Below are positions 5,872 through 31,972 of a DNA stretch of 32,000 nucleotides, one piece after another (positions within the stretch are counted from its first letter, which is position 1; the number at the start of each line of letters is the position of its first letter). Where the stretch lies: assembly GCA_000175855.1 (NCBI GenBank), contig ACYB01000036.1, positions 35,497 to 67,496 on the forward strand. Reading direction: 5' to 3'. The notes under the pieces were generated by a model. It was given only the letters and a program-made list of their open reading frames with translations. It searched no databases and was not told the origin of the DNA. Source of the DNA: Raphidiopsis brookii D9 (GTDB lineage: Bacteria; Cyanobacteriota; Cyanobacteriia; Cyanobacteriales; Nostocaceae). Both the position numbers and the translations under genes were made by a program.

Positions 5872-6203
5872 ATGTCAAGTATGTATCCAGAAGCTCTAAT
5901 CCATGTTGCAGAATATTTTAAAGTGTTATCGGAAGTAAGTCGATTACAGGTTTTGTGCTGTTTGAAGACAGGAGCAAAAAATGTTACCCAGGTGATAGCA
6001 GAAACTGGTCTTGGTCAAGCCAATGTGTCTAAACACCTGAAGATTCTGACTCAAGCGGGTATTGTCAAAAGAAGACCTGAAGGGTAATGGTGGTTTATGA
6101 GATTGTGGATCCCATATTGTTTCAATTGTGCGATTTAGTGTGCGATCGCCTGCAGGTTAGATTAGAAGAGCAGACTAGGGAGATACAGGATCTTAAACTA
6201 TAA
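5872..6203 (+). pseudogene. ArsR/SmtB-family wHTH regulator (BigR/SqrR-like context), interrupted by one single-base frameshift
   Basis: ORF 5872-6087 encodes the HTH (LQVLCCLKTGAKNVTQVIAETGLGQANVSKHLKILTQAGIV). After the stop, the -1-shifted frame continues as VMVVYEIVDPILFQLCDLVCDRLQVRLEE through the stop at 6201-6203. The shift is at the GGG run 6082-6084. Confidence 0.75.
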
Positions 6204-10237: not shown

Positions 10238-12309
10238 CTAATCCCGATAACCAATCAGTAATTCCCAACCATTGAGTTTACCTATATCCTGGGGAGAACA
10301 GTCAACAACATGTAACTGCCAATTTCCCTTGGCTGATGAATTTAGTAGCTGTTTGAGAACTGGTTGGGAACTGACTGTATAGGTTTTTTCTAAACGGGTT
10401 TGTCTTCCCAAAGTACGACTTTGCAATAACAAAGACTGACTGTTAGGGGGGATCAAATAAACTTCTAGATCTCCCAAAAAATCATGGCTAATATTCACGC
10501 CAATTCTAATATCATTAATAATAATATTTTGAGGAACCACAATTGTAGTTCTCACTCCTTGTTTTTCCCCATCGGGAATAGTAACTTGATTTTTATTTTC
10601 GCCCCTGATTAATTTATTGGCATTGTTGGCAACCAATCCATTACCTCGTAATTTTTGAGCTGCTCTGACTGCTTTAGCTGCATTCACCTTACCATAACCA
10701 AACCACAAACAATGACCATTACTATTATAAGTACCTCCCTGCAAACCCAATTGAGGATCTGGTTGTGGATCAACAATTTTATCAGTGGTTTCTTGTAAAA
10801 TACGGTTGACCTGTTGAGCAGTTAAATCCGGATTGGCTGATAACATTAATGCTGCTACTCCAGCAACCACAGGGGTAGCACTGGAAGTTCCACCAAAATT
10901 ATTAGTGAAATTTCCAGGATTATAACCCGCTTTCCCTATTTGATCTGTTGTCAACATTCCCAGTCCATCTATAGTTGTTGAAATAGTTGGTTGGGTGTAC
11001 ACAAAACCACTTTCTTGAACCACATTCCCGGAGGAGCATTATTACTAGGAGCGCAAACAGAAATATTCTCTCCCCAATTGCTATAGGCCGCTTTTTTATT
11101 TAAACTTGTAGATGCAGAAACGGCAATTACATCGGGATGAATAGCAAACCCACTTAACCACTTGGTTTTGCCTTTTAACAGATCCTTAGGCCAATTTTGC
11201 TCGTCTATAGTACCACTAATGGGACGGTTAGCATTACCTGCTGCAAAAAGAATTACACATCCTTTTCCATTACGTCCCTTGGTTGCAGCACGGGTAATTG
11301 CTGCTTTTTGGCGTAAAGATAAGGGAAAATAAACCGCAGATGCTCCCCAGCTACAGGAGATAACACTGGCATTGTATTTTAATGCCCAGTTGAATATGTC
11401 CTCAATTGATTCATCATCCAAATATCCAGTTGTACGAATTGGCATGAGGGCACAACCAGGGGCCACACCAACAATACCCTGTCCATTTTCTTCAGCAACT
11501 GCTAGTCCAGCACAAGCAGTACCATGACTAGTTTCTTGCTCTCCTGGTAGGGGTAAAAAGTCTTTTTCTTTTAAATCCCTGGGAGCAACAATTTTACCCA
11601 CTCCTTGTAAATCTGGGTGGTTCAAATCAAAGGAGTCATCCACAACTGCGACTACCACTGAACGTACCCCACGAGTTATATCCCAAGCTTGCTCTACAGA
11701 AATATGCGAAGCGATCGCCAGTTGATTTCCACCACTGTGATTGAGATACCACTGTTGAGGATAGAGGGAATCGCTGGGTCTGTAATGGGTTTCTTGTTGA
11801 ATAAAAACATTTGGTTCCGCTGCTAAGACTTCTGGTAGGGTTTGTAGTTGGTTGGCAATTTTGAGAGGATTATGTGGGGACTGTTTGCTGACTAAAAATG
11901 TAAAGGTATTGGGTAAATCAGCTATAGGTTGGTTTTCAGTGAGATTAAGTGAAGAGGTTATAATACCAATTTTATCATTATCTACCCCAGCTGCAAATTG
12001 AACTGTTATCTGATCACTCAAATAGACATAGCTGCTAGGGTTATCCTGTAATTGATAAACATGACTGGCAAAAGCTACTTTTTGATCAGATCTAGCTTGT
12101 GACATAGCCGCTTCTATCTGATCTGGTGTAACAGTGAATAATTCCAACTTAGCTCTGGGAATAGTACGCTGCCATTTTCCCCAGGAGATCCTGGATAATT
12201 CCTCCCTGTTTAGGTCAGCATACAAACGAAGAGTAAAACGTTCCGTGGATTTTATGAGAATCAACTCCTCTCCACCACGTTGCAAAACTACTGGTTGGTC
12301 ATTGATCAT
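10238..12309 (-). pseudogene. S8 subtilisin-like peptidase with a C-terminal proprotein-convertase P-domain, interrupted by one single-base frameshift
   Basis: ORF pieces are 10969-12309 and 10238-11023. Triad contexts are VAVVDDSFD (Asp), SHGTACAG (His) and GGTSSATPVVAG (Ser). The P-domain is INDIRIGVNISHDFLGDLEVYLIPPNSQ. The frames join at 11025-11031 (APSNNAPPG|NVVQESGFVYTQ). I see no obvious signal peptide. Confidence 0.85.
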
Positions 12310-14175: not shown

Positions 14176-15288
14176 TCAGTGTAAACCACTATCAAGTTTA
14201 TCTAAAACAAAGTGATTCCCACTCTCAAAATGTCCAAAAATTCTTTTAGCATCCCGGTCTGACCAAGCATCTATCTCATGGGTAGACGGAGGACGGGGAT
14301 TTCCTTTGAGTGCTTTTAAGTCAAGAGATGATACATTACATTTACCTCCTGATTCTAAATTCCTTGCTAACTGGTCTATTCTCTCGTTAATTAATACTAA
14401 TCTATCCCCTGATATTCCCTTCAAACTACCCTCAAACCTAGATCCATAACTTAACATTTCACTGGGTGAAGGATGCAACCTCTCCCCATAAATCTCTTTA
14501 TTTGTTCTTTTCCACACCAACTCTCCCCAAGGAGATAAAGAGACTTCACCTCCTACCGTCATTAATAGGGTTTCTGGTACACCACTAACGTCAGCAGTTT
14601 TCATTTTATTTGCCAGTCTACGAAAAACTTGAAGATGGTCACGTACGCTGTCTTCTACTACCATTTTCACGGGCAATTTTGGTATGCGCAACAGGTCTTT
14701 GGCTGTTTCAAAAATGTAAATTGTCTCGTCTGCATAAAATGTGGCTAGGGTTTGTAAAAATCCCTGCACACTCTTGAATCCCCCAGTTAAGTTAAATATA
14801 ATCTTATATTGGGAATTTCTATACTCAGGTATGGTATCTTCAAACCACTCCACCATATCTGATAAAGCAATTTGAAAGGACTCAATATCTTTTGTTTGCA
14901 GATCGGTCCTTCGGATTGTCTCAACTATAAAACCCCTTTTTCTTAACCAGAATTTTACCAAAGTAGCTGTCTGTTCCCCTAACCAGGTGTCAGTACAAAG
15001 CAAAAAGTGAGTGTCTGCTTTCTTCTCTAACTTACCATTATAAAGTTTAATAATGCCATTTAGCTCCGCTGACATCTTACTTGCTAACTCAAGATCAGCA
15101 GATGCTAGTTTTTCTTCTACTCTCTTAGCAAGCGATCGCAGTGTTAGGCTATCTTCTGGCGGTATATCTTGAATGTATTTTGCATTAGCATATTTACTGA
15201 CCAAACCTCTTTCCTCTTGAGCTGCTTGATTGGTCAACAAACTTGTGCCACAGGGTGAGAAAACAAATAAACGATTTTCCATGATCAA
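14176..15288 (-). CDS. CARF-domain protein (APE2256-type) with a C-terminal RelE/HigB-like toxin domain (Cami1-like architecture)
   Basis: The N-terminus LFVFSPCGTSLLTN is the hallmark first strand and loop of APE2256-family CARF proteins. The C-terminal ~70 aa (LKALKGNPRPPSTHEIDAWSDRDAKRIFGHFESGNHFVLDKLDSGLH) reads like a HigB/RelE fold. The second assignment rests on pattern recognition only. Confidence 0.65.
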   Translation of the reverse strand: MIMENRLFVFSPCGTSLLTNQAAQEERGLVSKYANAKYIQDIPPEDSLTLRSLAKRVEEKLASADLELASKMSAELNGIIKLYNGKLEKKADTHFLLCTDTWLGEQTATLVKFWLRKRGFIVETIRRTDLQTKDIESFQIALSDMVEWFEDTIPEYRNSQYKIIFNLTGGFKSVQGFLQTLATFYADETIYIFETAKDLLRIPKLPVKMVVEDSVRDHLQVFRRLANKMKTADVSGVPETLLMTVGGEVSLSPWGELVWKRTNKEIYGERLHPSPSEMLSYGSRFEGSLKGISGDRLVLINERIDQLARNLESGGKCNVSSLDLKALKGNPRPPSTHEIDAWSDRDAKRIFGHFESGNHFVLDKLDSGLH

Positions 15289-15346
15289 GGTTTCTGGTTA
15301 CAAGGGGTAATTTTATACTTTGGGACAGAGGTTCCAAACAAGTTTG

Positions 15347-16615
15347 TTAAGAAAGGGTGTTAGCAATGGTCTTTAACTCGAGTATAATCTGACCTGCTCT
15401 TGTTTCTAAACTTTCTGCTTTTTGAGGACTCTTGTTCATACCCACATGGGCAATATCATTGCGAATTTCGATTAACTTACCCCATTGTAGGGAAAACAAA
15501 TTAAAATCAGGTAGTTTTTCAAATTCATCATCCCAAGGGGAAACAGATGTTATTTCTTTGCCACGAAGTTTAATTTGTCCATTATTGAGCGCATTCCCCA
15601 CCTGTTCTCGCTGGTCTTTACTTAGTAGATCTTGTTCACCCAATCGATATGCTAAAACGGAAACTAGCCATTCTCTTGCTAAAGTCATAGCTTGCACAAC
15701 TTGATGTCTTTGTATATACCAATCTATTAGTTGAAATTGTAATCTCAGCCCTTGAGCTAAATTTTCGCTATTAGTGGGATTTTCTAGGGCAAATTGTCCA
15801 TATTCCTGGGTTAATTTTTGAGAAATCAGTCCAAAAGGTTTAGCTCTTTTATCAAAACTACGCTCTGCTTTTTTGATAATTTTCTCTAATTTTGTAGTTT
15901 CTTTTAAAATTTCTACAGGACGGACAAGACCTATAGCCAGAGAAATTTGATTAATAATGTCAGCAGTATCTTTAAATTCTCTAGCTAGAGGTCGTATAGT
16001 CGGATCATCTCTTTTTTCATCATTAGAAATTGCATTTTTTAACAGCTCTGCTAAGGGAGAACCATCACCTACTTTGACAAATCTATCTGCGGCCGCAAGC
16101 CAGTCTAATAAGCTGAGCATGGGCAATAAATCATAGGTGGGGGTATCTGCACCTTGGGCATTAGGGTCAAAAGCTCCATATAACACACCTTCAATTTGTA
16201 CCTGTTTTACCGTACGTAGGTAGCTAATAGCTAACAAGGCAATAACTGGAATGGAACGGAAACTATGGGTCAGGTCAAAAATAACCCTATCGCCCTCGTT
16301 TAAACAACTAGTAATTTTATCAAAAATTAACCAACTGTCATCCAAAGAATTACTCTCGGGAATATCAAAAACAGGCTCTAATTTAACAGATTTATTAGCT
16401 AGTTGTTCTTGTAATCCTTGCCAATTAGATACAGTTCCATTTCTGGGAATTTTAGTAGCTACCGTGGGTGTTAATAATACATATAATGTATCAGGTTGAT
16501 AAAATTCAACCAGGGCTTCCTGAAAAAATTTAGTCCTTACTGCTTGACTAGTTGTGGGATGGATATAATTGGTCTCGGTGTAATTATTAAAACCAAGAAA
16601 GGAAATAATTTTCAT
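15347..16615 (-). CDS. csx1: Csx1/Csm6-like CARF-HEPN ribonuclease (TM1812-type)
   Basis: The N-terminus is MKIISFLGFNNYTETNY, the DLTHSFRSIP motif is present, and the C-terminal HEPN R-x4-H motif RNDIAH is encoded at 15446-15463. Confidence 0.8.
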   Translation of the reverse strand: MKIISFLGFNNYTETNYIHPTTSQAVRTKFFQEALVEFYQPDTLYVLLTPTVATKIPRNGTVSNWQGLQEQLANKSVKLEPVFDIPESNSLDDSWLIFDKITSCLNEGDRVIFDLTHSFRSIPVIALLAISYLRTVKQVQIEGVLYGAFDPNAQGADTPTYDLLPMLSLLDWLAAADRFVKVGDGSPLAELLKNAISNDEKRDDPTIRPLAREFKDTADIINQISLAIGLVRPVEILKETTKLEKIIKKAERSFDKRAKPFGLISQKLTQEYGQFALENPTNSENLAQGLRLQFQLIDWYIQRHQVVQAMTLAREWLVSVLAYRLGEQDLLSKDQREQVGNALNNGQIKLRGKEITSVSPWDDEFEKLPDFNLFSLQWGKLIEIRNDIAHVGMNKSPQKAESLETRAGQIILELKTIANTLS

Positions 16616-16749: not shown

Positions 16750-17019
16750 CTAAACTATAAGGGAATCACCTACGGACATTTTTTGCTGTTGGCGCAAAGC
16801 AACCGCAATTTCAAGCGTAACTTTATTGATCATCAAAACATCCAAGTTATCTAAAATCGCCATGATGGCCTGTTTTTCAGCATCACCTAAACGATGGTAG
16901 CCCAATGTTTCCAAACGACTAATCGCAGAATAATGCGTGGCATAATTCACCAACCAGCTACGCAACTGCGTATATGGCGGCTGAGTGGCGTAAATAATCA
17001 AATTACTATCAATCAGCAT
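16750..17019 (-). CDS. vapC: PIN-domain VapC toxin, C-terminally truncated
   Basis: The likely start is the ATG at 17019 (MLIDSNLIIYA). It has the first three acidic PIN positions (D4, E in SRLETLGY, D in GDSLI) but stops at about 89 aa, without the usual final ~40 aa and last Asp. Confidence 0.65.
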   Translation of the reverse strand: MLIDSNLIIYATQPPYTQLRSWLVNYATHYSAISRLETLGYHRLGDAEKQAIMAILDNLDVLMINKVTLEIAVALRQQQKMSVGDSLIV

Positions 17020-17278
17020 CCTCTCTCCCGAATAAATTGCGATCTTGCCTTTGTTCACGCTGCCAAACAACTGGATCAGCAATTTCTGCAAAAGGATTTA
17101 ACGCCACCGCCTGCGCCAATGCTTGCGCCAAAACTTCCCGCCTTGCTTGGTTTGAAGTGATAGGCCTTTTTTTTCGTGCTTTTTGTTCTAGGTAAACAGC
17201 ATAATTCAGTAACTCCGCTTGCGATGATATCGGTAGAGCGGCAGCATGGTGTTGAATTTGTTGCAAAATAGGGTTCAT
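17009..17278 (-). CDS. vapB: VapB/DUF2281-type antitoxin
   Basis: The ATG at 17278 is preceded by AGGAG. The product MNPILQQIQHHAAALPISSQAELLNYAVYLEQKA...DPVVWQREQRQDRNLFGRE is typical of cyanobacterial PIN-partner antitoxins. Its stop overlaps the vapC start by 11 nt. Confidence 0.6.
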   Translation of the reverse strand: MNPILQQIQHHAAALPISSQAELLNYAVYLEQKARKKRPITSNQARREVLAQALAQAVALNPFAEIADPVVWQREQRQDRNLFGREDAD

Positions 17279-17384
17279 AGCTCCTGTCGTTTGTCTAGTA
17301 CCGGCGATATCTATATTACTGCTCAACAGGAAGCAGGTAAATAACACTCCTCTATGTTGTTGCTTTAGCACGGGGAGTGTCAAC

Positions 17385-17418
17385 TGTAGTATCTTTACAG
17401 ATGTAGTATCTTTACAGA
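17385..17418. repeat. perfect 2 x 17-bp tandem duplication TGTAGTATCTTTACAGA
   Basis: The copies are at 17385-17401 and 17402-17418. The repeat straddles the FkbM stop codon (17412-14) and lies upstream of a TTGACA hexamer and the vapB start. Confidence 0.9.
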
Positions 17419-18212
17419 CTGGCATGAGTGTCGTACCATGGCTCCTTAAGATTGAGTGTTTCTATGAGCATCCTACCCAGAGGATATCTATAAATAATCC
17501 CCTGTACGCCCAATATTTTATAGAACCAGAAAATGCGTTTGTAGATATTAATTGCTGCTCTTTCTGAAAGCCAATGACCGGGTGTTTCTTCTCCAAATAA
17601 TCCACTAGCACCAAATTCAAATTGATGTTCAATGTAATTGCCTTCTCTTGCGGGATATGGGCAAATTTGTTGTGCAGTTTTCTCTTGGTTAATAACTTTA
17701 AATTTCTGATAACCGAGTTCTTTTAAGAGCTTAAATTCTTCCAACAGGCTACTCCACGAAGTTTTGACTGATTCTATGGAAATAAACTGTGGCTTAGTAT
17801 CAAAGTGTTTGAGCGCCTGAACGCATAATATATCTGAACCTTCAATATCAACTTTTAGATAATAGGGAATGCCAAAGTCTTGTAAAATATTTTCAAATCT
17901 AGCCCCTTGTACAGTAATAGCCTCCGATTTGGTACCCAGAATTTCATTGCGAACAACAAAATCTGAAGAAGTTGTCCCCCAAATACTTTTGTCTAGGTTG
18001 GTATAGAAGGTAATTTCGCCATCTTGGGGGGCGATTGCTACATTGAGGAGTTGAAGTTGACCATTATCTATATATGATTGTAGTTTATTTTTTGTTGCTT
18101 CATAAATTTGGGGGTTGGCTTCTATACCCACCACTCGAAAACCTTTTTTTAAATAGTATTCGGTATCTTCACCCTGATGAACACCAACATCTATTATTAA
18201 ATTTTTATCCAT
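17412..18212 (-). CDS. FkbM family methyltransferase
   Basis: 266 aa. IIDVGVHQGEDTEYYLKKGFRVVGIEANP is the FkbM-type SAM-binding N-terminus. Confidence 0.8.
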   Translation of the reverse strand: MDKNLIIDVGVHQGEDTEYYLKKGFRVVGIEANPQIYEATKNKLQSYIDNGQLQLLNVAIAPQDGEITFYTNLDKSIWGTTSSDFVVRNEILGTKSEAITVQGARFENILQDFGIPYYLKVDIEGSDILCVQALKHFDTKPQFISIESVKTSWSSLLEEFKLLKELGYQKFKVINQEKTAQQICPYPAREGNYIEHQFEFGASGLFGEETPGHWLSERAAINIYKRIFWFYKILGVQGIIYRYPLGRMLIETLNLKEPWYDTHASL

Positions 18213-18388
18213 AGATAATAAGTTTTCCTAATCGTTCTCCCAAGCATACTCCTCCATATTAACCCATTACCTCGTTGCTGTCTACCTAATCCAGCGCAAT
18301 CGCACTGCACTCCCTGTGATCGCTCTTCCCGTACCACCGCATCCCCAAAATTAATATAATGGGGGAGTCCTACCTGAATTTAAAGATA

Positions 18389-19240
18389 ATGGTCACCACT
18401 TTAAAACCAGTTTCCACCCTACCAACACAGGACGAATTACCTTGCGATGATGGAGTGCCAATGGAGACTCAACGTCACAAAATGCAAATAGAAATCCTGA
18501 TAGAAACCCTAGGTCCATGGTTAAAGAATCGCGAAGATGGCTACATTGGTGGCAATATGTTTGTATACTTTAGTGCCAATGAAATCAAAACAGAAGATTT
18601 TAAAGGACCAGACTTTTTTGCGGTATTGGGAGTACCAAAGGGAGAGCGGAAAAGTTGGGTGGTATGGCAAGAAGGAAAAAGTCCAGATGTGATTATAGAG
18701 CTGTTATCAGAGAGTACAGCCAAAACAGATAAGATAACCAAGAAAAAAATCTACCAGGAGCAAATAAGGGTACCAGAGTATTTTTGGTATGACCCCTTTG
18801 ACCCAGAAGACTGGCAAGGGTTTGGGCTAAGGGATGGAGTTTACGAACCATTGGAGCGGATAGATGGGATGTATGAAAGCAAGCAGATGCAATTAAAGCT
18901 AGTGCGGTGGGAAGGGGATTATGAAGAGGTAAATGCGGTATGGCTAAGGTGGGCAACTTTAGAAGGAGAACTGCTACCAACCCGGTCAGAGATAATAGAA
19001 CAGGAACGATTAGCTAAAGAACAAGCAGAAGCTTTAGTTATTCAGGAACGCCAACAAAGGGAGATAGCAGAAACCCTAGCTATTCAAGAACGCCAACAAA
19101 AGGAGGTAGCAGAAGCCCTGGCTATTCAAGAACGCCAACAAAAGGAGGTAGCAGAAGCCCTAGCTATTCAAGAACGTGAGAAGAAGGAAAAATTAGCTGC
19201 CCACTTGCGCGCTCTTGGCATCAACCCAGATGAGATTTAA
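18389..19240 (+). CDS. Uma2 (DUF820) family PD-(D/E)xK endonuclease with a C-terminal 14-aa tandem-repeat tail
   Basis: ELPCDDGVPMETQRHKMQIEIL...PDFFAVLGV...PDVIIELLSEST matches the Uma2 core. The ATG at 18389 is preferred over 18359. Confidence 0.8.
   Translation: MVTTLKPVSTLPTQDELPCDDGVPMETQRHKMQIEILIETLGPWLKNREDGYIGGNMFVYFSANEIKTEDFKGPDFFAVLGVPKGERKSWVVWQEGKSPDVIIELLSESTAKTDKITKKKIYQEQIRVPEYFWYDPFDPEDWQGFGLRDGVYEPLERIDGMYESKQMQLKLVRWEGDYEEVNAVWLRWATLEGELLPTRSEIIEQERLAKEQAEALVIQERQQREIAETLAIQERQQKEVAEALAIQERQQKEVAEALAIQEREKKEKLAAHLRALGINPDEI
19025..19192 (+). repeat. four tandem 42-bp units inside the Uma2 gene
   Basis: Units start at 19025, 19067, 19109 and 19151, and the middle two are near-identical. 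They encode AE(A/T)LAIQERQQKEV heptad-like repeats. Confidence 0.9.
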
Positions 19241-19301: not shown

Positions 19302-19350
19302 ACGAAGCTCTCGCTATAGATAATCGTTCTTTACCCCTAAAATTTTCCCT
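19302..19350 (+). repeat. degenerate copy of the short repeat family also found at 31809-31972 (left flank of the DISARM-like island)
   Basis: ACGAAGCTCTCGCTA-N12-CTTTACCCCTAAAATTTTCCCT here, versus ACGAAGTACTCCCTA-N12-CTTTACCCCCTTCACAATTTTCCCT at 31809-31860. Both are in the same orientation. Confidence 0.5.
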
Positions 19351-19672: not shown

Positions 19673-22600
19673 CTATAAGTGGGCAAGTTTTTTTATGTTC
19701 TCTCTCCATTCCTCGTTGTATTTCAATACCAGTACTTGGTACTTTGTCTCCCTCCTCACCTTTTCTCTCTTTCTTTTGTCTTCTCTTTTCTGCTCTTCTG
19801 TGTCATGCACAGACCCATCACAAAAAATGGCAATTTTGTCTATGTATACAAAGTCTGCTTCACAATCAGTCCCTGGTATTAAAAATTGCGCAGCATCGGG
19901 CATTCTATATCCTCTTTCGTAAATCTCTTTTATCACTTCCCTCTCTAACTCAGATCTCCTATCCGTCTGTAAATACAGTGTTTCAAATTCTTTCTCTCTG
20001 TCCATCTCCCTTTCTCTCTCTAAATAACTCTCCTTAATCTCTTCTAACAGTTCTTTTATTAAATGTCGGTTGATTAAGTTATGCTCATTCTGATTTCTAT
20101 AAGAAAGCAGGCACTGGTAACAAGCATAAACACAATCCTCTTTCGGTTCGTAAAAATGACAAATGTCTAGTGCTTTCTCCGCTATTTTATTCAGGTGTTG
20201 TTTATCTTGTAAAATCTGGGATAAAACTCCCGCTCCCCCCTCCGCAGCTTCCCAAAATAGTAGATATTTACCATTCCCCATTTTTTCTGAGTCTAGTTCA
20301 TTCGGTTCTAAGTTATAATGCTCTTGTATTCCTCTCTCTAAAGCATATTGCAGGCTTGTCATTATTGTCTCTGTGTCTTCTCTATTCTCACTTTTCCCCT
20401 GGTCTATGGTGTCTATTTTTGATTCCTCTGCTTCTTTAATTAATTCAATAATTAATATGTTACAAGTAATATTCACCATCAGAAAAATGTCACTTTTGGT
20501 TGTAGTGCTATTTTTCCCTATTTCTTCTTTATTCTCTTCATTCTCATTACTTATCCATTTGCCTGTTTGCGTATCTAAACAAAATCCTTGGTCTTTCTTT
20601 TTTGCTGACCCTCTATTAATTCTCGATATGCTCGCTGTCGCTCCATAAGTCAGTTTTAACAGATTCTTCCCCTCTTTGGTTTTTATTATTACCGTCTTTT
20701 TGTTCCCTTCACTATAACAAAAATGAGTGGTTATGTTATATCCATATTTTAATCTCTCTTCTTCATCACAAGTAATTCTTTGCTTTTTCTGAGTATATAC
20801 TGTATCCATGGATAGAATTTGATTAACTTTAGCACGTTCATTTTTATCTGAGTATGCTTTAATATCTCTTTCGCAATTTTCACACCAGTCTTTAGTATCA
20901 ATATTATAAATATAACCACAGTTAAAGCATACTGTTGCTCTCTGATATTGATTTTCTATACCACCGAGGATTTTACTCCTGGAGATCATGAATTTATCCC
21001 CCTCATGATAAATTATGTTCCGAGGAGCAAATTCTCTCAGAGCAACCGAACGCAGTCGAGAAATAAATTCACCCCCTGTTGGTTATTAATAAACGCCCGC
21101 ACCGGTAAACGGGGAAAATTAAACCCTGGTAAAAATCCCTCAGCAGCAAAGTAACGATAGGGATAAAATTCATTTTGTTGATTATTTCTACTGTTCCCCC
21201 CTATTAATAATTCCATCTGTCTTTTTGCCTCCTTTTCCTGTCTTTCATAGTCATCTGCTTCTGTTTTCCCTTGTAAATACTTATCCCTTTTTTTTGTCGC
21301 TTCTTCTAATTGTGCTTTTGCACTTTGGTAAAGTTTTCTCCACCTTTCACAGTGTTGATTAAACGCACTAGGTGCATTTTCTATAATCCCTTCTACCCAG
21401 TCTTTTATATACCAGTTGGTCTGTCTCAAGTCTTCTTGACAAAACTCGTCCGCTAAAATTTCCTCACAGGCTTTCACACAACTCTCAAATTTACTTACCT
21501 GCCTAAACTCATCACCACTCTTTCTGTCGTGATTATTAAACTCACTTACAGTCTTCCTAAGATTTATTCTTTCTATTATGTCATCCCGAAGTGGATAGTC
21601 CTTATCTCCCAGTTCTAAAATATTGGTCATAGAATCCCCCAAATATATTCCCGTATGAGCTAACCATATAGAATAAATGTGGGATTTAATTAAATCTTCA
21701 TTGCCTAGTTCTATTTTTGGCGGTGCTACTATACCAGATACCATTTGGGATTGTCTATGAAAAAAGTATTGGTCATGTCCACTACTATTGGAAGCATAAG
21801 TAATTACTAAGGCTTCTTGTCCACTTCTCCCTGCTCTTCCACTTCTCTGTGCATAATTAGCTGGATTAGGTGGAACATTACGTAAATGTACCACACTTAA
21901 ATCAGAAATATCTATTCCTAATTCCATTGTAGGTGAGCAAAACAAACTCCCTAAAATCCCCTGTCTAAATTTCTCTTCCCGCTCCTGACGCACTTGACTA
22001 GAAACCTGTCCCGTATGTTCTCTACCCTCTATTGTTTGAATCTCTCTAGCATGATTCTGGTAGAAGTTTTGAAAGAAACTGTTAACCGTAATTTTATTTG
22101 GTTCTGTATCTTTTAATCCCTTAAATGATAGAATATCTACCGGAATTTCTGCCTTTTGGGCAGATTTCCAAATCAAACAGTCAACTCGCAATTGTATTTC
22201 TAACGGCGTTAAATCCGAGTTAGAGTTAGCCTTACTTTTTTTCGTTAAAATTCCAACATTAATTAAAGCAAGAATTAAACACCTAATTAAATCATTGTAC
22301 TCAGATTCACATAAATCCGTACTACGACCAGACCAGTTATCACAGGAACGTAAAAACTTACCCAATTTACTGTAAGCAGTCAGTTTTACCCTAGTTTCAT
22401 CATTGGTTTGCTTAGAAGTAGAATCACCAGTTTTGTTTAGCACTGCCCACCTAGCCATCTTCGGCTTTTCATCAGGCTCAAAAGCCCATGGATCCTTTAT
22501 AGCTTGATTAACATTTCGTACCAGACTATCCTGTTTATCCCTCTGCAATAAAATTGCATCCATAGCCAATTCCCTTCTTAAAAGGTCCAGTAGCACAACA

Positions 22601-24918
22601 CAGGCCTTGTATCTTTCAGAAAAACTAGCTTCTAAAAGAACAACATGGCTATGCTTTTGCCAAACCTCCTTGTTACGACAAGCCTCCTCTAGTCCATCAT
22701 ATTCAATCTCTAACAGTCCACATTGCTCCAAATTCGGTTGTACAATTCGCCATCCCCGTCGCAAGTCTTGGTATAGTCGATACTCTATTAATTGGGCAAA
22801 AGCATTTTCATTTCTTCTTCTACCATTGTCAAACTCCACCACCTCCTTAGCGTAGTCACCTTGAGACAGATTCATTTGCTTAATTACAGCAGAAACTAGA
22901 CTTCCGTGCCTTAGTTCCCCCTCCGCTTGCAGAGCACCTAACAAAGCACCCCTTAAAAAACTGGTTTGAACAAAATCATTAAAATGTCCTGCTTGTAAAG
23001 AAGCATCTTGACGATTATCAGTAAAACTCAGGATTTTAGCAGCTTTCGCCTTTTCCCCTTTGAAAATGCTTTTCAACCGGGTAACAGTGGATAAACATAA
23101 GAGCGTAGTTGCCGTACTTCTTCCTTCACTGCTTAAACTAGATAGTTTAGAAAACTCATTCTTATGACCAGAATGAAAAGTTCCACAATGTAAACAAAAC
23201 CTAAAAGGGTGAGGAACAAACCAACAGGTATTCCCCTCTAGCAGGGAACCTATCTTCCCAGATGGTAATATTTGCAGTGATTGGGGGACAAAACGTTCAT
23301 AATCTTTTTTTATTTCCCTTCCCCTCCTTTTCGTTTCTTTGAACCAGCTATCGGGTAATTTTTCTCGGTCCTGTGGATCATGCCAAAGATTAGGTCGATT
23401 TAGGATTAGGTAACCTGAGATTTTTGGGTCCTCCGAAACCTCATCATCAAAACTACGGGGGAAAATGCCTTCATTTGGTAAGTAATTAACCAAGTAATAA
23501 TCCTGTCCACATTCCCGGCAAAACACTAGGGGAAAAAGTAGCCGATTTTCAGTGGTGGAATATTGACCATCAAGGGTTAAAACTCGATACTCGGGATTTT
23601 CAATAGTAGAGTACACATTTCCCGCTTGTGAGATAAATTGATGCAATCGAAAAGTTAATCCTTTCACCCTACTTCCCCATAAAAACATCTCTTGAATGAT
23701 GTCTAAACAAGTCTCTTGAGGAATTTGTGTTTCGTCAGCTAAAAGTTTGGCTCCTGCTTCTAAAGTAATAGGCGTACGTCTTACTAACACATGTCGTTTA
23801 TTCTCTTGTTTATCTTCTTCTTTTCCCCTCTCTAATGTGTGTTCTAATACTTCATCTAGTCCAAAAGTTGTTTCCATCCAATAGCTGAGGGGATGAGCCT
23901 TAAACTCTTCTATAGTTTGCTGTGAAGTTTCTGATAATCCTTCAATAATGCTAGTACGTAACTCTTCAACCGTAGGTTTATGTCTGACTATAGAGCGTTG
24001 TAAAGATTCAGTGATGACATTTTGTTGGAGAATTTGTTTACCGAATATTTTACTGGCTACATTAGCTACTACTTGACGACGACTCACAAGAGAGTTTTCC
24101 GTAGACATAGTAGCACTAGTACCAATATATAATAAATCTTGACCACAGCGCTGGCGTAACTTACGGATAAGAATAGCCACATCAGCACCTTGACGACCTC
24201 GATAGGTATGTAATTCATCAAGGACCAGAAATTTTAAGTGAGGGGAACTGACTAATTTTTCTTCATGCGTGCGAGAGAGCATCAGTTCCAGCATTACATA
24301 ATTAGTCAGGAGGATGTGGGGGGGATTATTTTGGATTTCATTCTTGGTTTGTAAACTTTCTTGTCCCGTATATTTAGCAATGCGGATAGGGGAATTGGGT
24401 ACATTAGCAAGAAACTTATTTAATTCTTCCTCTTGGGAATTAATTAGAGCATTCATAGGATAAACTAGAATTGCCCTCACACCTTTTATTTCAGGATTAT
24501 GGAGCAAATCATTAAATATAGGAACAATATAAGTCATACTTTTCCCCGAACCCGTTCCCGTTGTTAACACATAGGATTGACAAGTTTGTGCCACCTCAAA
24601 AGCCCGTTTTTGGTGGAAATGAAAATGAAAAGGTTGGTTATTTTTAGAGAAATAGGCAATACACTCAGGATGGAGGAGACCTTTATCTACCAATTCAACT
24701 ACTGTTGCTCCTGGTGTATATTGGGGATTTAGTTGTAGTAAGGGAGAATTCCAAAATTTTCCACTAGTTAGTTCCTGATTGACAAATTCTTCAACTCGTT
24801 GATCCTGAATTTTTAAAAAACTTTTTATGTAGCGGTGATAGTCATCAACTATCTCTTGACGGAATTGAAAAATATCTAGAAAGTTAGGGAAATAGTGAGG
24901 GTGGTTCATTGATTTCAT
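19673..24918 (-). pseudogene. DExH helicase fused to DUF1998/MrfA-Zn and a Vsr/DUF559-like nuclease domain (DISARM DrmA+DrmB-like; ~1,748 codons), one single-base frameshift
   Basis: ORF pieces are 21037-24918 and 19673-20989. SF2 motifs are GTGSGKS, LDELH, GTSAT and QRSGRAGR, and CxxC pairs are CRECG and CLHCG. The lower frame is open upstream of its first Met and joins at the C5 run 21072-21076 (..AFINNQQG|GEFISRLRSVALREFAPRNIIYHEG..). DUF1998 signatures are FLPGFNFPRLP, CFNCG-x12-CENC, EAAEGGAGV and CVYACYQCLLSYRNQNEH. Confidence 0.75.
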
Positions 24919-24967
24919 TATTGGGTAATAGGGGTGGTTTTGGGTTTATTAAAGGGAAGGGAGAGGT

Positions 24968-27900
24968 TTAAAACAACCTATCCCAGGCTTGTAAAATCAA
25001 CCGTTGAGTTTTATACTCACCATACATTTTCAGCTCATTATTTTTAAGCACTCTAAAAGACTCACTGGGAAAATCAGAACCGTAGATATCCGTAGGGTCT
25101 AGAATGTAACGCATTTCATCACGAGAAAGATTATGGAGTTTACCATAATAAGCATCTAATTCAGCCCTAATTAAGGCTCTTCTCTCTATGTTCCAAAAAA
25201 AAGGTTCACCCTCATATCCCATCTCCAGAGCAAAAGGACGCATATCCCAGGTTGTGTATACTAATTCTAATACCCGGGGAGTAATATATTCTATATCTTT
25301 TTGGGTGTATCTTTCTGGGGGAATTATTGGTAGTTGTTTAACTATGAAAAAGTTAAGATGGGTGCTACCAACTTTTTGGCGGGTTACATAATCAAATACT
25401 AAGCTACTAAGATTAGCCACTAAACAAGAAACTAAACTAGTTTTTTCTAAAATTATTATTGGTGCACTATTACCAACCCCAACCCTAGGTAACAAACTAA
25501 AAATAGCGGTACGTTGATCAGTTGCACGACAGATATCTCTAAATGCTAAAAACCAACTGTGATCCCACTTTCCTGCTAACTTCTGGTCAACTTCTGTTTT
25601 ATCAACCCAATACCGTGGGAAACAAACAAAAGAAGGATCTTTCTTTTCGTCCTCTGTTAAATCTCTCATATCTCCACTGGAGGTATAAGTTCCCCACCGG
25701 TGATCAAACTGGTGAAACATCTTAGCTTCATATAATGGCACTAAACTATCACCCTTCTCATTTTTAAATACTCCACTATCATTTGCCATGTCAAACATCC
25801 TCATAAATGAAATTCCCCAGGGGTTAATTCCCGTCTTTTCATTTTCTATTACCGGTAGTTGGTGGTAGATTTTTTTTGTTAATTGTGCATCCTCACTAGT
25901 TCTAAATACTGGACATGTTAACGTGTTGGGGTTAATTAGAGCAATTTCTTCTGCTTTTAAGTTAAATACTCTGTTTTTTTCTTCCAGTTGTTTCGTTCTA
26001 CTCAAGAAAAATCCAAATCTGCTTTCTTCCGTTCTTCTCTTACTTATACCTAGTAAACAAAATTTATAACTGCGATGAACAGCTATAAATATTGCTTCTC
26101 TATTTTCAAAGTCATAAAGACTCGCCAAATGCTGTTGTTTAACCAAATCACCAAAAACATTTTACAAGTGTCATCTGTAGCAATACCAGTCGGTACTATT
26201 ATTCCCACCCTTCCATCTTCCTTGATTAAATTTCTCGCTGTTTCCGCAAAAATTGAGTAAGTATTAACATCACCCACAGCAGTTAAAGGGAATCTCCCTG
26301 ACTCCCGAATAAATTTATTTTGGGCTTCCGCATCATGACTCGCCTGTTCAAATTCTTGAGCCAGTTGGGGATTTTTTTGGGGTAATTCCTTAATCAGTTT
26401 CTCCCTAGCTGCCTTATTCTTTGCTGTAGCTATTTCATTGCTCCGTGATGCAAAAAATTCTTTCTGCTGGATTTTTATTCTCTCCCAGGGGGATTACCTA
26501 ATACACAATCAAAACCTCCATTTTTAAAAACTTCTGGGAATTCTAATTGCCAATGAAAAAAGTGATATTTTTTAGCGAGTTCATTACTGTTTTTTATTAT
26601 TTCTGCTGAACTTAAATTTCCTTTCAACAGTTCCATTAAAATCGAATTAGTAGGCAATAACTCTAAAGTTTTCTCCGTTACAGATATAAAAAAAGCTGCC
26701 GTCCATAAATTACATGCAGAGTAATCACTCCACATATCACTTCTCAGCTCTTCATATTTGCTGGACTTTTCTTTAATCGACTCAGGATCAATCTCACTTA
26801 CTTCCCCCAGCACCTCAGCTTTCTCCATATATTCTTCCCTCGTCTCCTCTCTTTCTTCAAACCATGGCATCACCAATTGTAAAGACCCTAACTCCCTTTT
26901 ATTTCTCTTTTTTACACCAGTGACGATTTTTTTATCATCCCCACTTATAGCCTTAAAAGCACCATCTGGTATTCCTTCTTCTAAACATTCTAGATCTAAT
27001 ACTCCCACCAACGAATTCCCACATTTTATCCGATGATCTAAAAAGTTTAGGGGTTTTCCACTACAGAAACCTTCTATCCATAATCCCACCTTGCATAAAT
27101 CTACTGCTAAGGGATTGATATCTACCCCATAAATACAATTTTGTATCACCTCCCTAATTGCTTCCCTTAACGACGAAGCACCAGGTTGAATATCTCCCGT
27201 TCTGATTTTTGCCAATTCCTTACCCAATCTTCTTGCTGCTGCTAATAAAAAATGTCCTGACCCACAAGCAGCATCCACCACCTTTATACTCAGTATTGCT
27301 CTTTCTTGTGTCTTCTCATTTTCCTGCGCCATTTTTTCTTTAATTACTGGCTCCAAAGCCGTTTTTATTAATTCTTGTACCAAGCTAGGTGGCGTATAAT
27401 AAGAACCAGTTGTTTTTCTTTCACTACTAATATCCACAACTAATTTAAAACTAGAGTTATACTTATCCAGAGTTATTTGGGGATGAAAGTCCAATAAACT
27501 TTCATAAACACTACCCAACTCCTCCACATCCAAAGCCCCATAATTTACCTTTCGTATTTGTCCATTTTCATAATACAGAGATAAACAACGCAAGGCATTT
27601 AATAAGTGAGAATTATCAATAGAACTTGTTTCCAAAAGTGTTAAACTTTCAGAACCAAATAGGTCACCATTTAATGGCGATAAGTCTAACATACTTCCTC
27701 GCCATTTTTCATCGAATAATTTAAAAGTTATACATAAACCACACCATAAATCCTGAAAACTTTCAGTTCCTGAAGGCAATATTTCTGCTAAAACCCTTAA
27801 CCTTTGTATACTATAATACCGATTATAAATTTTACCTTTTTCCGATTCCGAATCCAATAAAAGTAAATTACGCGATTCTGCAACCATCAGAAATAACAGA

Positions 27901-28840
27901 CGATAAATTAACCTTAATAATTGGCGATAAAGGTTTTGGTCACCTGATGGTCCATGTAATTTTTGGCGCAGAGAATCATTATCCCAATGTTGTAAGAATC
28001 CATTCCCTAAATATTCCAGTGCTTTTTCCACTCCATCTCTGAGTTTCTCTCTAACCCTCCCCCCCTCTTCTAATCCTTTTTGATAATAATCTTCCAGTAA
28101 ACATGTTTCCGGATTTTCACTAGAAATTGGCAATCTAGATCTATGAAATAGTCGATAGAATAGACTGAATTCAGCAAAATTTTCATCTTGAATAATCTGT
28201 TCTAAATTAAACTCTATATAGCTTAATCTAGTTAGTAAAGAAGAGTCACGCAATAAACGCCAACGAATACCATTTGACGCGATCGCCCAGAGATGTTCAG
28301 TAGCGTTGAGGTATTCTTGAACTAAACTATGAGCGGAAATGCGGGAAGATCTAGTAATAGGTTCACTATTGGATGTAGTGGTAGAGCGTTTAGGGAGTTT
28401 TTCTAGTTCTTGACGACAACCGATAATATGAATAGGGAGGAAAGAAAAAATAGCTTCAGGGTCATAAGGAACAGGAACAGCGCGATGGGAGATAGAATAG
28501 GGAGTTGAGCCAACCATTTCCCTCTTACCACAGGGGACAACCTGGTAACCAAGAGTCCGCAAAAGCGGTAACGCTAACATTTCTCGAGTTACCGAAGTAG
28601 CAGAATCCGTAGAGGAAAGTCTTTCACTTTGTCGTTTAAAGGCATACCAGTAGGCTTTAACATCTCCCCAAGCGACAGCTAATTCATCCTCAATTCTGAT
28701 TCCTTGAGGAAGACCAAAATCTTCTGGTAACTGACCCTTATAAGAAGGTTCAAGGATTGAATTGAGGATATCAGGAATCAGTAAGTTACCATGAAGACCA
28801 CTCCGGATAAAGTAGACTTAGCTGTTCTGGGTGAGGGCAT
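24968..28840 (-). pseudogene. large N6-adenine DNA methyltransferase, Eco57I/PglX-like (DISARM DrmMI-like; ~1,291 codons), three single-base frameshifts
   Basis: Pieces in gene order: the ATG at 28840 (MPSPRTAKSTLSGV), a shift at 28798-99, then an open frame through ORF 26475-28580 (motif I VVDAACGSGHFLL). A shift at the G5 run 26488-92 turns GNPPGRE* into GNPPWERIKIQQKEFF. A further shift at 26153-63 leads into ORF 24968-26146. Confidence 0.75.
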
Positions 28841-28923
28841 AACACTAACAAAATAGTCAAATTATGATTATAACATATTGAAAATGGTATTTAACAAATA
28901 ATCTTGGTACATTGGAGGAAAAA
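28841..28923. promoter_or_regulatory. divergent AT-rich control region between the methyltransferase operon and the SNF2 gene
   Basis: It is a short gap between two divergent starts. It contains TATAAC (28869-74), and a GGAGG Shine-Dalgarno at 28914-18 lies 5 nt before the ATG at 28924. No promoter was mapped. Confidence 0.3.
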
Positions 28924-31780
28924 ATGGAAATAGGATCTATAGTTAACTGTCGTCAGCGCCAATGGGTGAGCATACCCAGTGAAGACCCGGAAATTAGTTT
29001 ATTAAAACCCTTAAGCGGAAATGAGCAGGAAATAATAGGTATATATAAAAAATTGAATTTGGAAGAACCCACACCAGATAAATTTCCTCAACCCAATCCA
29101 GAATACATAAAAGACCATCAAAGAGCTTGTCTTTTAATGGATGCTACAAGACACTTGCTACGTAGTGGTGCTGGTCCTTTTCGTTGTTTTGGGAGAATTT
29201 CCTTTCGTCCTCGTCCTTATCAAATAGTTCCCCTATTAATGGCCCTGCGACAAGAAACAGTCAGATTATTGATTGCAGATGATGTAGGTATAGGAAAAAC
29301 AATGGAAGCTGGATTAATTGCCCGGGAATTATTAGACCGTGGCGAAATCGAGCGCATTGCAGTTTTATGTCCTCCTCACCTATGTGACCAATGGCAAAGG
29401 GAATTACTGACTAAATTTCATATAAAAGCTACAGTAATCCGCTCAGGAACTGCAAATAAATTAGAGCGAGAAAACCCCACAACCAAATCTATTTTTGAGT
29501 TTCATCGTCATATAATAGTCAGCTTAGACTATGCAAAAATGGAAAAAAGAAAAGCAAGTTTTATTTTGCATTGTCCTGACCTTGTAATTATAGATGAAGC
29601 TCATACTTGTACCATAGCTAATGCGCAAAATAGAAGAGAACAACAAAGATATCAAATAGTATCAGAAATTGCTAAAAACCCTTAACCCATTTATTATTAG
29701 TAACAGCGACCCCCCATAGCGGAATTGAAGAATCCTTTTTATCTCTTTTAGGATTATTAAAACCGGAATTTTCCCAGTATCCCCTAGAAAATCTAACAGA
29801 ATTGCAAAAACAGGACCTAGCCAATCATTTTATTCAACGACGCAGGTCCGACGTAAAACAGTGGTTAGGTAGCCAAACCCCATTTCCAGAGAGAGTTTCA
29901 GAGGAAAAATCCTACAAACTTTCCCCGAATACAAAACTCTTTTTGATGCAGTTTATGATTTTGCCACAGGACTAATTAAAAATACCACCGAAGATATGAC
30001 TTATAATCAGAGGAGAGGTCGGTACTGGTCAGCACTAGCCTTAATTCGTTGTGTAATGTCCTCACCTGCTGCTGCCATAGCTACCTTAGAGCGTAACTCA
30101 GCAAATCTAGATAACCTTGAAGAATCACAGCAAGAAAATGATTATGAAATTGATAATCAACTAATGAGCGCCTATGTTTATGATACCACAGAAGTAGAGC
30201 AATCAGTAGACACTGCGCCCAGTATAGTAATTGAACAGGGGAAACAGAGCTATAAACCAGGGGATAAAAGAAAAATAAAAAGTTTTATTGAAGCTGCGAG
30301 AAAGATAGAAGAGAAGAAAGACCAAAAACTCATTACCTGTTCCATGTACGTGCAGGAGCTATTAGAGAATAATTATAATCCCATAATATGGTGTCGATAT
30401 ATAGCCACAGCCCAATACCTAGCCAAAAACTTGCGAGAAAAACTAGAGAATCAGAATAAAAAAGACGATAACACCAGAGTTATTGCCATAACCGGTAATC
30501 TTTCTGAAGAAGAGAGAGAAATTAGATTAACAGAATTAAAAAACTATAGTCGAAGAGTACTAGTAGCCACAGATTGTTTAAGCGAAGGGATAAACCTACA
30601 AACTCATTTTAGTGCTGCAATCCACTATGATTTACCTTGGAATCCGAACAGATTAGAACAAAGGGAAGGGAGAATTGACCGTTATGGACAGACTGCACCG
30701 ATAGTAAAAAGTTGCTTATTATATGGTAGAGACAATCCAGTGGATGGTGCAGTTTTAGATGTTTTAATTCGTAAAGCAGTAGAGATTCATAAGACCTTAG
30801 GAATTACAGTACCCATTCCCATAGAAAGTGCAAACATTGCAGAAACCATATTTAAATCCCTATTTGACAGAAATAATTATGGGAAACAACTATCATTATT
30901 AGACTTATTAAGTGACGAAGAATCAGGAACCGACAACCTATCAAAACAGTGGGATAGAGCAATAGAAAAAGAGAAAATTAGTAGAACCAGATTTGCACAA
31001 AGAGCCATCAACCCAGGAGAAGTAGAGAGAGAACTATGGGAATTAGACATAGCACTAGGTTCACAAAAAGAAGTAGAGAGATTCATTATAAATGCTTTTT
31101 CCGCCATGAATTGTAGCTTAATTAAAGAGAAAGACACATGGTTATTACCGAAAAAATCATCTGATTTTAAAAACAGATTAAGATTAGAAGAAGAACTAGA
31201 TAGTATTAAGAGAATCAGTTTTAGTGTACAGACAAGAGAAGGGATAGAGTACGTAGATAGGAATCACATTTTAGTTGAGAGAACAGCAACTCATATTTTA
31301 GAGACTGCCTTAGGGGACATGAATCATAGTTTAGCCAGTAGATGTAGCTTTACAATTACTGATATAATTGAGAAGAGAACCACATTATTATTATTAAGAT
31401 TAAGACATTTAATAAAAACTAGAAAAAGGAGCAAGAGAGAAATGATAGAATACCATGAATTTTTAGGAGAAGAATGTCTTCTAATAGGATTTTGTGGTTC
31501 ACCGGAAAACCCTGAATGGTTGGAAGATAGGAAAGCGATAGAATTAATTGAAGGAATAAAAGTAACAGGAATAGGGATTGATCCGAAACAGGAGATAGAA
31601 GACTTTTTAGGAGAATTCAACGAGATAGAGAGAGAACTAGAAAAAATTGCCAACCAGAGAGCGCATAAATTATGGGAAAGTCATCAGAGAGTGAGAAAAA
31701 TTACCAAAGAAATACCTGTAACTGTGGAACCAAGAATCCCCATGGACTTATTAGGAGTGTACATTTTGCATCCTAGCTAG
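28924..31780 (+). pseudogene. SNF2-family helicase (DISARM DrmD-like; ~952 codons), two single-base frameshifts
   Basis: Pieces are 28912/28924-29685, about 29682-29975, and 29996-31780. Motifs are DDVGIGKT, IIDEAH, VTATPHSG, ATDCLSEGINLQ and QREGRIDRYGQ. The frames rejoin at 29674-81 (AKNP|LTHLLLVTATPHSG) and at the C4 run 29923-26 (KLSP|EYKTLFDAVYDFA). Confidence 0.75.
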
Positions 31781-31804: not shown

Positions 31805-31972
31805 GTTTACGAAGTACTCCCTACGCGAGATCGCACTTTACCCCCTTCACAATTTTCCCTTGATAACGAACGGTCGGCAAACAAGTAAATGCGCTTGCGA
31901 AGCACTCACTACACGCGTTTACGAAGTACTCCCTACGCGAGATCGCACTTCACCCTCTTCAAAACTACCTAA
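31805..31972 (+). repeat. short dispersed-repeat cluster: a 34-nt perfect direct repeat (31805-31838 and 31917-31950) with diverged tails and a degenerate copy between
   Basis: GTTTACGAAGTACTCCCTACGCGAGATCGCACTT occurs twice, 112 nt apart. GCTTGCGAAGCACTCACTACACGCG at about 31893-31917 is a degenerate version. Confidence 0.7.

Follow-up and report, generated by a model that had tools for sequence, protein, structure and literature searches.

We analyzed a window of 32,000 nucleotides from the cyanobacterium Raphidiopsis brookii D9 (contig ACYB01000036.1; positions are counted from the first base of this stretch), which contains an island of three large, adjacent genes at 19673-31780. A first-pass annotation had assigned to these genes an SNF2 helicase, an Eco57I/PglX-like N6-adenine methyltransferase and a DExH helicase joined to a DUF1998 module, and Pfam searches confirmed this domain set at 28924-31780 on the + strand and at 24968-28840 and 19673-24918 on the - strand, respectively. 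We refer to the three genes as armA, armB and armC, after the ARMADA systems, a name that stands for "disARM-related Antiviral Defense Array". Altogether, our results indicate that the island is very probably an ARMADA type I anti-phage system, and that the frame breaks interrupting all three genes are most probably bases under-called in 454/GS20 sequencing. The number of breaks was found to be exactly six, as first counted, and each is a one-base homopolymer deletion relative to Cylindrospermopsis raciborskii CENA303, which served as the reference for the homopolymer comparison. Repair of all six in silico gave uninterrupted proteins of 1748, 1291 and 952 amino acids (aa) for armC, armB and armA, without a stop codon. 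In CENA303 (contig NBYN01000058.1), which is syntenic with the window and 99% identical at the nucleotide level over 3340-31807, the three genes are intact.

In the window, armC (19673-24918, - strand) appears as a 1293-codon open reading frame (ORF) with DEAD and Helicase_C domains, overlapping a 438-codon ORF with the MZB/DUF1998 domain. The D9 record splits the gene in the same way, into EFA72523.1 (1290 aa) and EFA72522.1 (438 aa), both identical to the window ORFs. Restoring one base in the C5 run at 21072-21076 (- strand; G5 on the coding strand), which is the sole break in armC, produced the single frame of 1748 codons that the first-pass annotation had predicted, and the CENA303 orthologue OSO89156.1 is an intact protein of exactly this length with 13 substitutions (99.3% identity to the repaired armC). 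The same site reads C6 in CENA303 and in loci L001 and L002 (98-99% nucleotide identity), and a 90% identical relative, L003, reads CCCCCTT where the window reads CCCCCT, i.e., it has one extra base and an intact frame. Furthermore, the 120 best-scoring armC homologues listed are 1621-1925 aa long and cover 94-100% of the repaired query. The earlier description of armC as a broken fusion gene thus holds insofar as a single polypeptide contains both the helicase and the DUF1998 module, whereas "broken" is most likely wrong as biology, since the breaks look like 454/GS20 under-calls.

The domains of the repaired ArmC protein are those of a YprA-like DExH helicase, and Pfam, PADLOC and homologue comparisons agree on this. 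The RecA1/DEAD domain lies at 24097-24615 (- strand; PF00270, E 3e-24) and carries a Walker A motif (GTGSGKS) and a DELH motif, both of which are invariant in helicase alignment A1. It is followed by a beta-rich insertion at 23185-23520 (- strand) with two invariant CxxC pairs, C467/C470 and C575/C578, for which an AlphaFold2 (AF2) model shows strands at residues 462-569. The sequence suggests that this insertion sits where ARMADA and Druantia helicases have a beta-barrel zinc-binding module and that it may likewise bind zinc. The model of residues 1-800, with a pLDDT (predicted local distance difference test) score of 70, also contains a helical insert at ~277-417 and a further helical region after the beta-rich one, and Foldseek searches with this moderately confident model returned helicase cores only, with MrfA first. 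The RecA2/Helicase_C domain was located at 21820-22104 (- strand; PF00271, E 1.7e-13).

The C-terminal half of ArmC contains an OB-CON-DUF1998 "canopy" at 20108-21150 (- strand), which extends from the motif FAAEGFLPGFNFPRLP through a 4-Cys MZB domain (20108-20353) and was delimited using PF09369, a fold match and the PADLOC DruE1 model. PF09369 (MrfA zinc-binding domain, formerly DUF1998) was matched at residues 1523-1604 with an E value of 1.8e-8, over the gathering score. The earlier proposal that the DUF1998 signature lies before the frame break and the rest of the domain after it was therefore correct in part: FAAEGFLPGFNFPRLP (residues 1257-1272, invariant in the family) does lie before the break, near the start of the predicted DruE-like C-terminal module, but it is outside the Pfam domain, which falls entirely beyond the break. 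The DruE1 alignment itself spans the break (approximately residues 1258-1668 against model positions 1300-1713), and a phmmer search of the FAAEGFLPGFNFPRLP region against PDB sequences found no significant match. The OB region contains a single extra CxxC...CxxC insertion (C1331/1334/1346/1349). For the last 438 aa of ArmC, modeled with a pLDDT of 81, the best PDB matches by Foldseek were MrfA (6znp_A, 4e-7) and DrmB (7s9v_B, 1.2e-3, probability 1.0).

The window was also said to lack any gene of the phospholipase D (PLD) fold and to have a different nuclease fold at the helicase C-terminus in its place, and both statements were borne out. PLD families matched neither any ORF of the window nor the Pfam annotation of the syntenic genes, and the C-terminus of ArmC (19700-19945, - strand) is a predicted active nuclease domain of the Vsr-type PD-(D/E)xK class, assigned from family sequences and a structural model. 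Among the C-terminal 115 residues of 18 family members, PF18741 (MTES_1575) was matched in 17, PF04480 (DUF559) in 8 and PF03852 (Vsr) in 3, while the MTES_1575 match in the window protein itself was weak and sub-threshold. The invariant residues of this domain are D1689-F1690, C1700-D1701-G1702, H1705, D1714 and R1718, and in the model the final ~96 residues of ArmC can be laid over the Vsr-like catalytic domain of I-Bth0305I (3r3p_B) with a TM-score of 0.69 on the target and a root-mean-square deviation of 2.9 A. A profile of the last 115 residues found no significant match among PDB sequences, so the nuclease assignment rests on the family-wide Pfam matches and the fold match.

The armB gene (24968-28840, - strand) encodes a PglX/DrmMI-like Eco57I-type N6-adenine methyltransferase, which matched the Eco57I, N6_Mtase and MmeI_Mtase families; its best PADLOC match was DrmMI (285 bits), and type IIG restriction endonuclease-methyltransferase models were matched as well. 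It lies in four frame segments, which three one-base repairs join into a protein of 1291 aa with the N-terminus MPSPRTAKSTLSGVVFHGNLL, 97.9% identical to the intact 1293-aa methylase of CENA303. One base is missing from each of three runs on the - strand: an A2 run at 28794-28795, 15 codons into the gene; a G5 run at 26488-26492 (C5 on the coding strand), within the catalytic NPPW motif; and an A5 run at 26153-26157. The NPPW motif is present in CENA303 and is restored in D9 by the one-base repair. Separately, we observed a strongly diverged mosaic patch with small indels between D9 and CENA303 at 25357-25480 (residues ~1120-1165), which holds about 20 of the 25 amino-acid differences between the two proteins, the remainder of the gene being ~99% identical. 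This patch could be a recombination tract or a segment related to specificity.

The armA gene (28924-31780, + strand) encodes a BrxHII/DrmD-like SNF2 helicase (SNF2-rel_dom, ResIII and Helicase_C families), with its SNF2 N-terminal domain at 29227-29637 and Helicase_C at 30350-30688, both on the + strand by Pfam. It is in three pieces, and restoring one base in an A5 run (29674-29678, + strand) and one in a C4 run (29923-29926, + strand) gave a 952-aa protein that differs from the intact 952-aa CENA303 protein by one substitution (99.9% identity). Among PADLOC models, ArmA matched "DpdE" (PDLC02853) end to end (positions 6-971 of 985; 247+304 bits), DrmD with 124+142 bits, and BrxHII. PDLC02853, a model of PADLOC 2.0, is thus a far closer fit to ArmA than all DrmD and BrxH models.

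As stated in the first-pass annotation, armA is transcribed divergently from armB-armC across a short shared region, which measures 83 bp between the two start codons (28841-28923) and 84 bp in CENA303. The divergent arrangement is common to D9, CENA303 and a third strain (L090; GCA_002321945.1), and because the latter two also have it, we attribute the inversion to the lineage rather than to faulty assembly. It is the only structural peculiarity of the locus. The A6 run at 28919-28924, which ends with the first base of the armA start codon ATG, is A7 in CENA303. A promoter scan of the 83-bp spacer found one weak sigma-70-like match, not above shuffled sequence; a search for inverted repeats flanking armA, as a cause of the inversion, found only short pairs at chance level; and no tRNA gene that might have served as an integration site was present in the window. 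The island was also said to be more AT-rich than the genes at 6-9 kb, and the difference is real but small: its GC content is 37.1%, compared to 41.9% for the 6-9 kb stretch and 39.4% for the rest of the window.

Recently, ARMADA was described as a clade of YprA-like helicases that is sister to Druantia, encoded in operons that have a BrxHII/RapA-like helicase and a methylase of the PglX-like kind in common with DISARM class I, and it was termed a "missing link" between DISARM and Druantia (Bell et al., 10.1101/2025.09.15.676423). The same study reported that the type I order is usually helicase, SNF2, methylase, with the SNF2-methylase pair first in many archaea and cyanobacteria, that ARMADA I and II helicases carry a predicted active Vsr-type PD-(D/E)xK nuclease at the C-terminus in place of PLD, that OB-CON-DUF1998 is consistently separate from the helicase only in DISARM, and that ARMADA groups with Druantia in a YprA phylogeny, apart from the DISARM/Dpd clade (10.1101/2025.09.15.676423). 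The SNF2-methylase-helicase order found here is the one described for cyanobacterial type I systems. In addition, two proteins listed in Table S1 of that study as "ARMADA Type I helicase", UJS04812.1 (C. raciborskii KLL07) and QNP30886.1 (C. curvispora) (10.1101/2025.09.15.676423), belong to the 90% cluster of a protein (P0005) that is 60% identical to ArmC over 99% of its length, and whose locus encodes an SNF2 helicase, a methylase and a helicase.

Model and structure searches with ArmC gave results in agreement with this placement. The PADLOC model DruE3 was matched with 292 bits and six other DruE models with 168-256 bits, whereas two DrmA models were matched with 50 and 40 bits and in the RecA2 motif region only. 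With the C-terminal 504 residues of ArmC, DruE models were the only PADLOC matches, and no DrmB model matched this segment even at E<=1. A PDB sequence search returned E. coli DruE (9tu7, Druantia III-A; 159 bits) and B. subtilis MrfA/YprA (108 bits), and DrmA was not listed. By sequence, therefore, ArmC is predicted to sit in the ARMADA/Druantia branch and not in the DISARM/Dpd branch. Within ARMADA, we assigned the locus to type I rather than type II because there is no UvrD/GajB-like gene after armC, where the downstream genes are only a 79-aa ORF and Uma2 on the opposite strand, and because the OB region has a single zinc-module insertion.

To determine how widely the three genes occur together, a scan with the helicase alignment was run on one genome per GTDB species, which gave 80 loci among the matches listed, from many phyla, and the repaired SNF2 and methylase proteins were searched by tblastn against these 80 loci and that of C. 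raciborskii L004, i.e., 81 in total. All three genes were found together with substantial coverage in 50 of the 81, and most of the others end at a contig edge. The complete loci come from Cyanobacteriota, Chloroflexota, Actinomycetota, Pseudomonadota, Planctomycetota, Acidobacteriota and other phyla, and full-length matches to ArmC that include the C-terminal nuclease likewise extend across phyla. The gene order is helicase-SNF2-methylase in 42 of the 50, SNF2-methylase-helicase in 7 (the cyanobacteria and three others) and methylase-helicase-SNF2 in 1; in every one of them the genes are co-directional. The earlier proposal had left room for genes that do not co-occur, and for a helicase that falls inside a described family whose partner genes are missing here. 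The helicase does fall inside a described family, ARMADA type I, but its partner genes are present.

The species complex was found to contain two ARMADA I alleles that are 60% identical and occupy different loci, one in CS-505, KLL07 and other strains and one in D9 and CENA303. The second allele can be seen in C. raciborskii L004 (GCA_048258825.1, 1145-15361), where it is co-directional and 60% identical to that of the window, with a 23S_rRNA_IVP four-helix-bundle gene separating armA from armB, an MNT/HepT toxin-antitoxin pair separating armB from armC, and DO-GTPase genes downstream. In L090 (NPIL01000001.1, 218-21776; a 3.76-Mb single-contig assembly), the divergent armA/armB-armC arrangement has other downstream neighbors. 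L090 has the same island as D9, and its genes are fragmented like nearly every gene of that stretch; we considered this fragmentation as a sign of decay and set it aside, as it looks like the result of an unpolished long-read assembly.

Next, we weighed whether the six frame breaks in D9 are sequencing artefacts or real mutations, that is, whether the island is decaying or switched off, through pseudogenization or homopolymer phase variation, in a reduced genome. All three genes are broken, and the D9 genome is the smallest among those of filamentous cyanobacteria (D9 genome paper), both of which would fit real mutation. Several of the affected runs are also short (A2, C3, G3), which is less typical of 454 errors, and this weighs against artefact, as some runs appear too short for classic 454 errors. 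However, comparison of the window with CENA303 revealed 13 one-base homopolymer differences, and in each case it is the window that lacks the base (two-sided binomial p = 2.4e-4; p = 0.007 when two one-base insertions in intergenic DNA are set against this trend). The island holds seven of them, of which six are coding and one affects the stretch of As at the start codon of armA, and six lie in the 16.3-kb flank, at 3515-3518, 5352-5354, 6082-6084, 11018-11019, 18223-18226 and 19334-19337. All of the latter except the one at 18223-18226 break genes that are intact in CENA303, namely TauE, an MBL-fold hydrolase, an ArsR/HTH_5 regulator, an S8 protease and the 79-aa ORF. The deletions are about as dense in the flank as in the island (0.37/kb and 0.58/kb, p = 0.42), and an enrichment of frameshifts in the island was rejected on this basis. 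The repaired genes contain neither a stop codon nor any further lesion, and the repaired ArmC shows no change at columns in which the other 23 sequences of alignment A1 do not vary. Moreover, runs of 2-6 bases are far under the usual lengths for phase variation, which counts against a switching mechanism.

The D9 genome was sequenced on the first-generation 454/GS20 instrument at 27x, the Sanger reads for correcting "454/Roche technology intrinsic errors" numbered only a few hundred, and the genome paper mentions neither frameshifts nor pseudogenes (D9 genome paper). Because the deletions are one-sided and about as dense in the flank, CENA303 is intact, the platform was GS20 with little Sanger correction and no other lesion was found, we conclude that the six breaks are in all likelihood homopolymer under-calls, i.e., an assembly artefact, so that the real D9 genes are probably intact; real mutation is unlikely. 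Consequently, the split ORFs of the 2010 D9 record (EFA72522.1, EFA72523.1 and the pieces of the methylase and SNF2 genes) are best read as probable products of 454 error. If the deletions were real, slippage at short runs would have silenced three ARMADA genes in the D9 lineage while leaving the sister strain CENA303 intact, and the locus would be a snapshot of the loss or switching of a defence system in the smallest filamentous cyanobacterial genome. The comparison also indicated roughly one probable 454 error per 2-3 kb in the D9 draft.

The identity of the system was weighed in a similar manner. The first-pass annotation had regarded the island as class 1 DISARM-like, and such a reading would require that drmA and drmB were fused and that the PLD nuclease gene drmC was replaced by the C-terminal nuclease. 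The DrmMI and DrmD scores of ArmB and ArmA agree with it, as does the match of the C-terminal module to DrmB at the fold level. Nevertheless, this interpretation is improbable and the class 1 DISARM label did not hold: the DruE models outscore DrmA by far and no DrmB model is matched, there is no DrmC, DrmA is absent among both the sequence and the fold matches in the PDB, and the published phylogeny separates ARMADA from the DISARM/Dpd clade. Neither a split between helicase and DUF1998 nor a PLD domain with a 4-helix bundle is present, the single frame is found in all homologues listed as well, and the arrangement is that of the published ARMADA type I. What did stand from the earlier proposal is the DruE/MrfA-like architecture and the intermediate character between DISARM and Druantia, since accessory genes of DISARM class 1 are combined here with a Druantia-like helicase.

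Even less probable is a Druantia-type system, made up of DruE and partners that escaped recognition, which happens to lie beside an SNF2 helicase and a type IIG/Eco57I-like restriction-modification gene with no relation to it, although DruE models are the top match for the helicase and the methylase does match type IIG models. No DruH-sized, DruA-D or DruM/F/G partner was found, the neighbors being the methylase, the SNF2 gene, the 79-aa ORF and Uma2, of which none gave a DruH-like match; in 50 loci from many phyla the three genes lie side by side in one direction; and the nuclease is Vsr-like, unlike the PLD pair of Druantia III. The least probable of the readings that we weighed is a restriction module of the Dpd (7-deazaguanine DNA modification) type, which is prompted by the end-to-end "DpdE" match of ArmA and by weak matches of the helicase to DpdJ models. 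Neither the window nor the syntenic annotation contains dpdA/B/C-type genes (TGT-like, 7-deazaguanine biosynthesis), and ArmC keeps the 4-Cys DUF1998 cluster that canonical Dpd helicases have lost (10.1101/2025.09.15.676423). PDLC02853 dates from 2023, before ARMADA was described, and may have been trained on ArmA-like sequences.

Some observations weigh against the assignment to ARMADA type I. The N-terminal model has a pLDDT of 70 in the region where the lineage-defining BrxA-like and MarR-like insertions would sit, and the experimental evidence for defence in the studies consulted comes from type II, which has a fourth gene, and not from type I. For type I systems in general, the methylation attributed to ArmB, the DNA on which ArmC acts and the nuclease activity are predicted properties. 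Finally, armA is divergent here, whereas it is co-directional in all 50 of the other complete loci. The three genes therefore need not be one operon. As a novel reading, weaker than that of gene silencing in D9, the inversion of armA, specific to Raphidiopsis/Cylindrospermopsis, together with its 83-bp bidirectional control region, could represent a functional rewiring of ARMADA regulation.

A possible mechanism for the system can be drawn from experiments on ARMADA type II, the biochemistry of DruE and MrfA, and DISARM. Previous studies showed that MrfA and DruE both bind single-stranded DNA (ssDNA) and that DruE unwinds in the 3'-to-5' direction. In E. coli, ARMADA type II conferred resistance to 13 of 80 phages and infected cells remained viable, which marks this immunity as direct rather than abortive; every gene was required, and mutations in the Walker A/B motifs of ArmA or ArmC or in the NPPW motif of ArmB abolished protection (10.1101/2025.09.15.676423). 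By homology with PglX and DrmMI, ArmB would methylate host DNA at N6-adenine within a specific motif. ArmC might load onto exposed single-stranded or unmethylated DNA of the invader and translocate 3'-to-5', with the OB-CON-DUF1998 canopy clamping the tracked strand, and the Vsr-type endonuclease carried by this motor would be the likely effector that cuts the invading DNA. ArmA may act as a second ATP-dependent DNA translocase, of the SNF2 type, which is needed for defence. Immunity would be direct and not abortive.

At lower coordinates than the island, the window contains further genes of possible interest. Two orphan genes of CRISPR-associated type were observed at 14176-16615 (- strand), a few kb from the ARMADA locus. 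One encodes a Cas_APE2256 protein of 370 aa (E 7e-34) and the other a protein of 422 aa, whose CENA303 orthologue matches MJ1674_2nd. No CRISPR array or other cas gene was noticed in the window, in which no array search was made. Also nearby are a PIN toxin pair (16750-17425), an FkbM methyltransferase gene (17412-18212) and the Uma2 endonuclease gene (18359-19240), and the area looks like a small defence island. The 3' part of the Uma2 gene contains a tandem 42-nt (14-aa) repeat, AEALAIQERQQKEV, at 19024-19176, in the C-terminal tail of the protein; it appears as offset self-matches against CENA303, and the Uma2 protein is 293 aa here and 283 aa there. On the other side of the island, just downstream of armA (31805-31964), there are two near-identical copies of ~48 nt and a partial third copy of GTTTACGAAGTACTCCCTACGCGAGATCGCACTT, which looks like a cyanobacterial short dispersed repeat or a miniature inverted-repeat transposable element (MITE). 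The CENA303 alignment stops at 31807, at the start of this element.

These results also bear on how such loci are labeled. The system itself is already known, having been described in 2025 and listed from the same genus, and the first-pass annotation therefore overestimated its novelty: from the sequence alone it in effect arrived again at the ARMADA concept, which entered the literature in September 2025. Tools of the PADLOC 2.0 era may call ArmA DpdE and report the locus as a partial Dpd, DISARM or Druantia system, which is what models of that time give; the correct label is ARMADA type I.

Comparison with the known systems places the locus as follows. ARMADA type I has the same three genes and no fourth, and its helicase has a fused OB-CON-DUF1998 module and a Vsr-type nuclease; this locus differs from it in the inverted armA and in the six one-base breaks of the record, which are probably artefacts. 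In ARMADA type II (armABCD of E. coli NCTC 12900 / EDL933), ArmA, ArmB and ArmC are homologous and the A-B-C order is alike, but type II has a further component, ArmD, in which a GajB/UvrD-like helicase is joined to a RelE-like domain, and its ArmC often has inactivated extra EEP/Vsr domains and two OB zinc-module insertions, none of which is found here. DISARM class 1 (drmD, drmMI, drmA, drmB, drmC) resembles the locus in its SNF2 protein, N6-adenine methylase, YprA-family helicase and DUF1998 module, while its helicase and DUF1998 are separate genes, its nuclease is the PLD protein DrmC and its helicase belongs to another YprA clade. DruE of Druantia III, a 3'-to-5' ssDNA-dependent helicase, is the closest helicase by sequence (DruE3, 9tu7) and also combines helicase, zinc modules, MZB/DUF1998 and a C-terminal nuclease region in one polypeptide; it differs in having DruH as its partner, in its PLD domains, and in having no methylase or SNF2 partner. 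Finally, MrfA/YprA of B. subtilis (6znp) gave the best fold match to ArmC in its N-terminal core as well as in its C-terminal DUF1998 module, but MrfA is a protein of ~750 aa without the inserted zinc-binding and helix-turn-helix modules and without a fused nuclease, and its role, together with MrfB, is in mitomycin C repair and not in defence.

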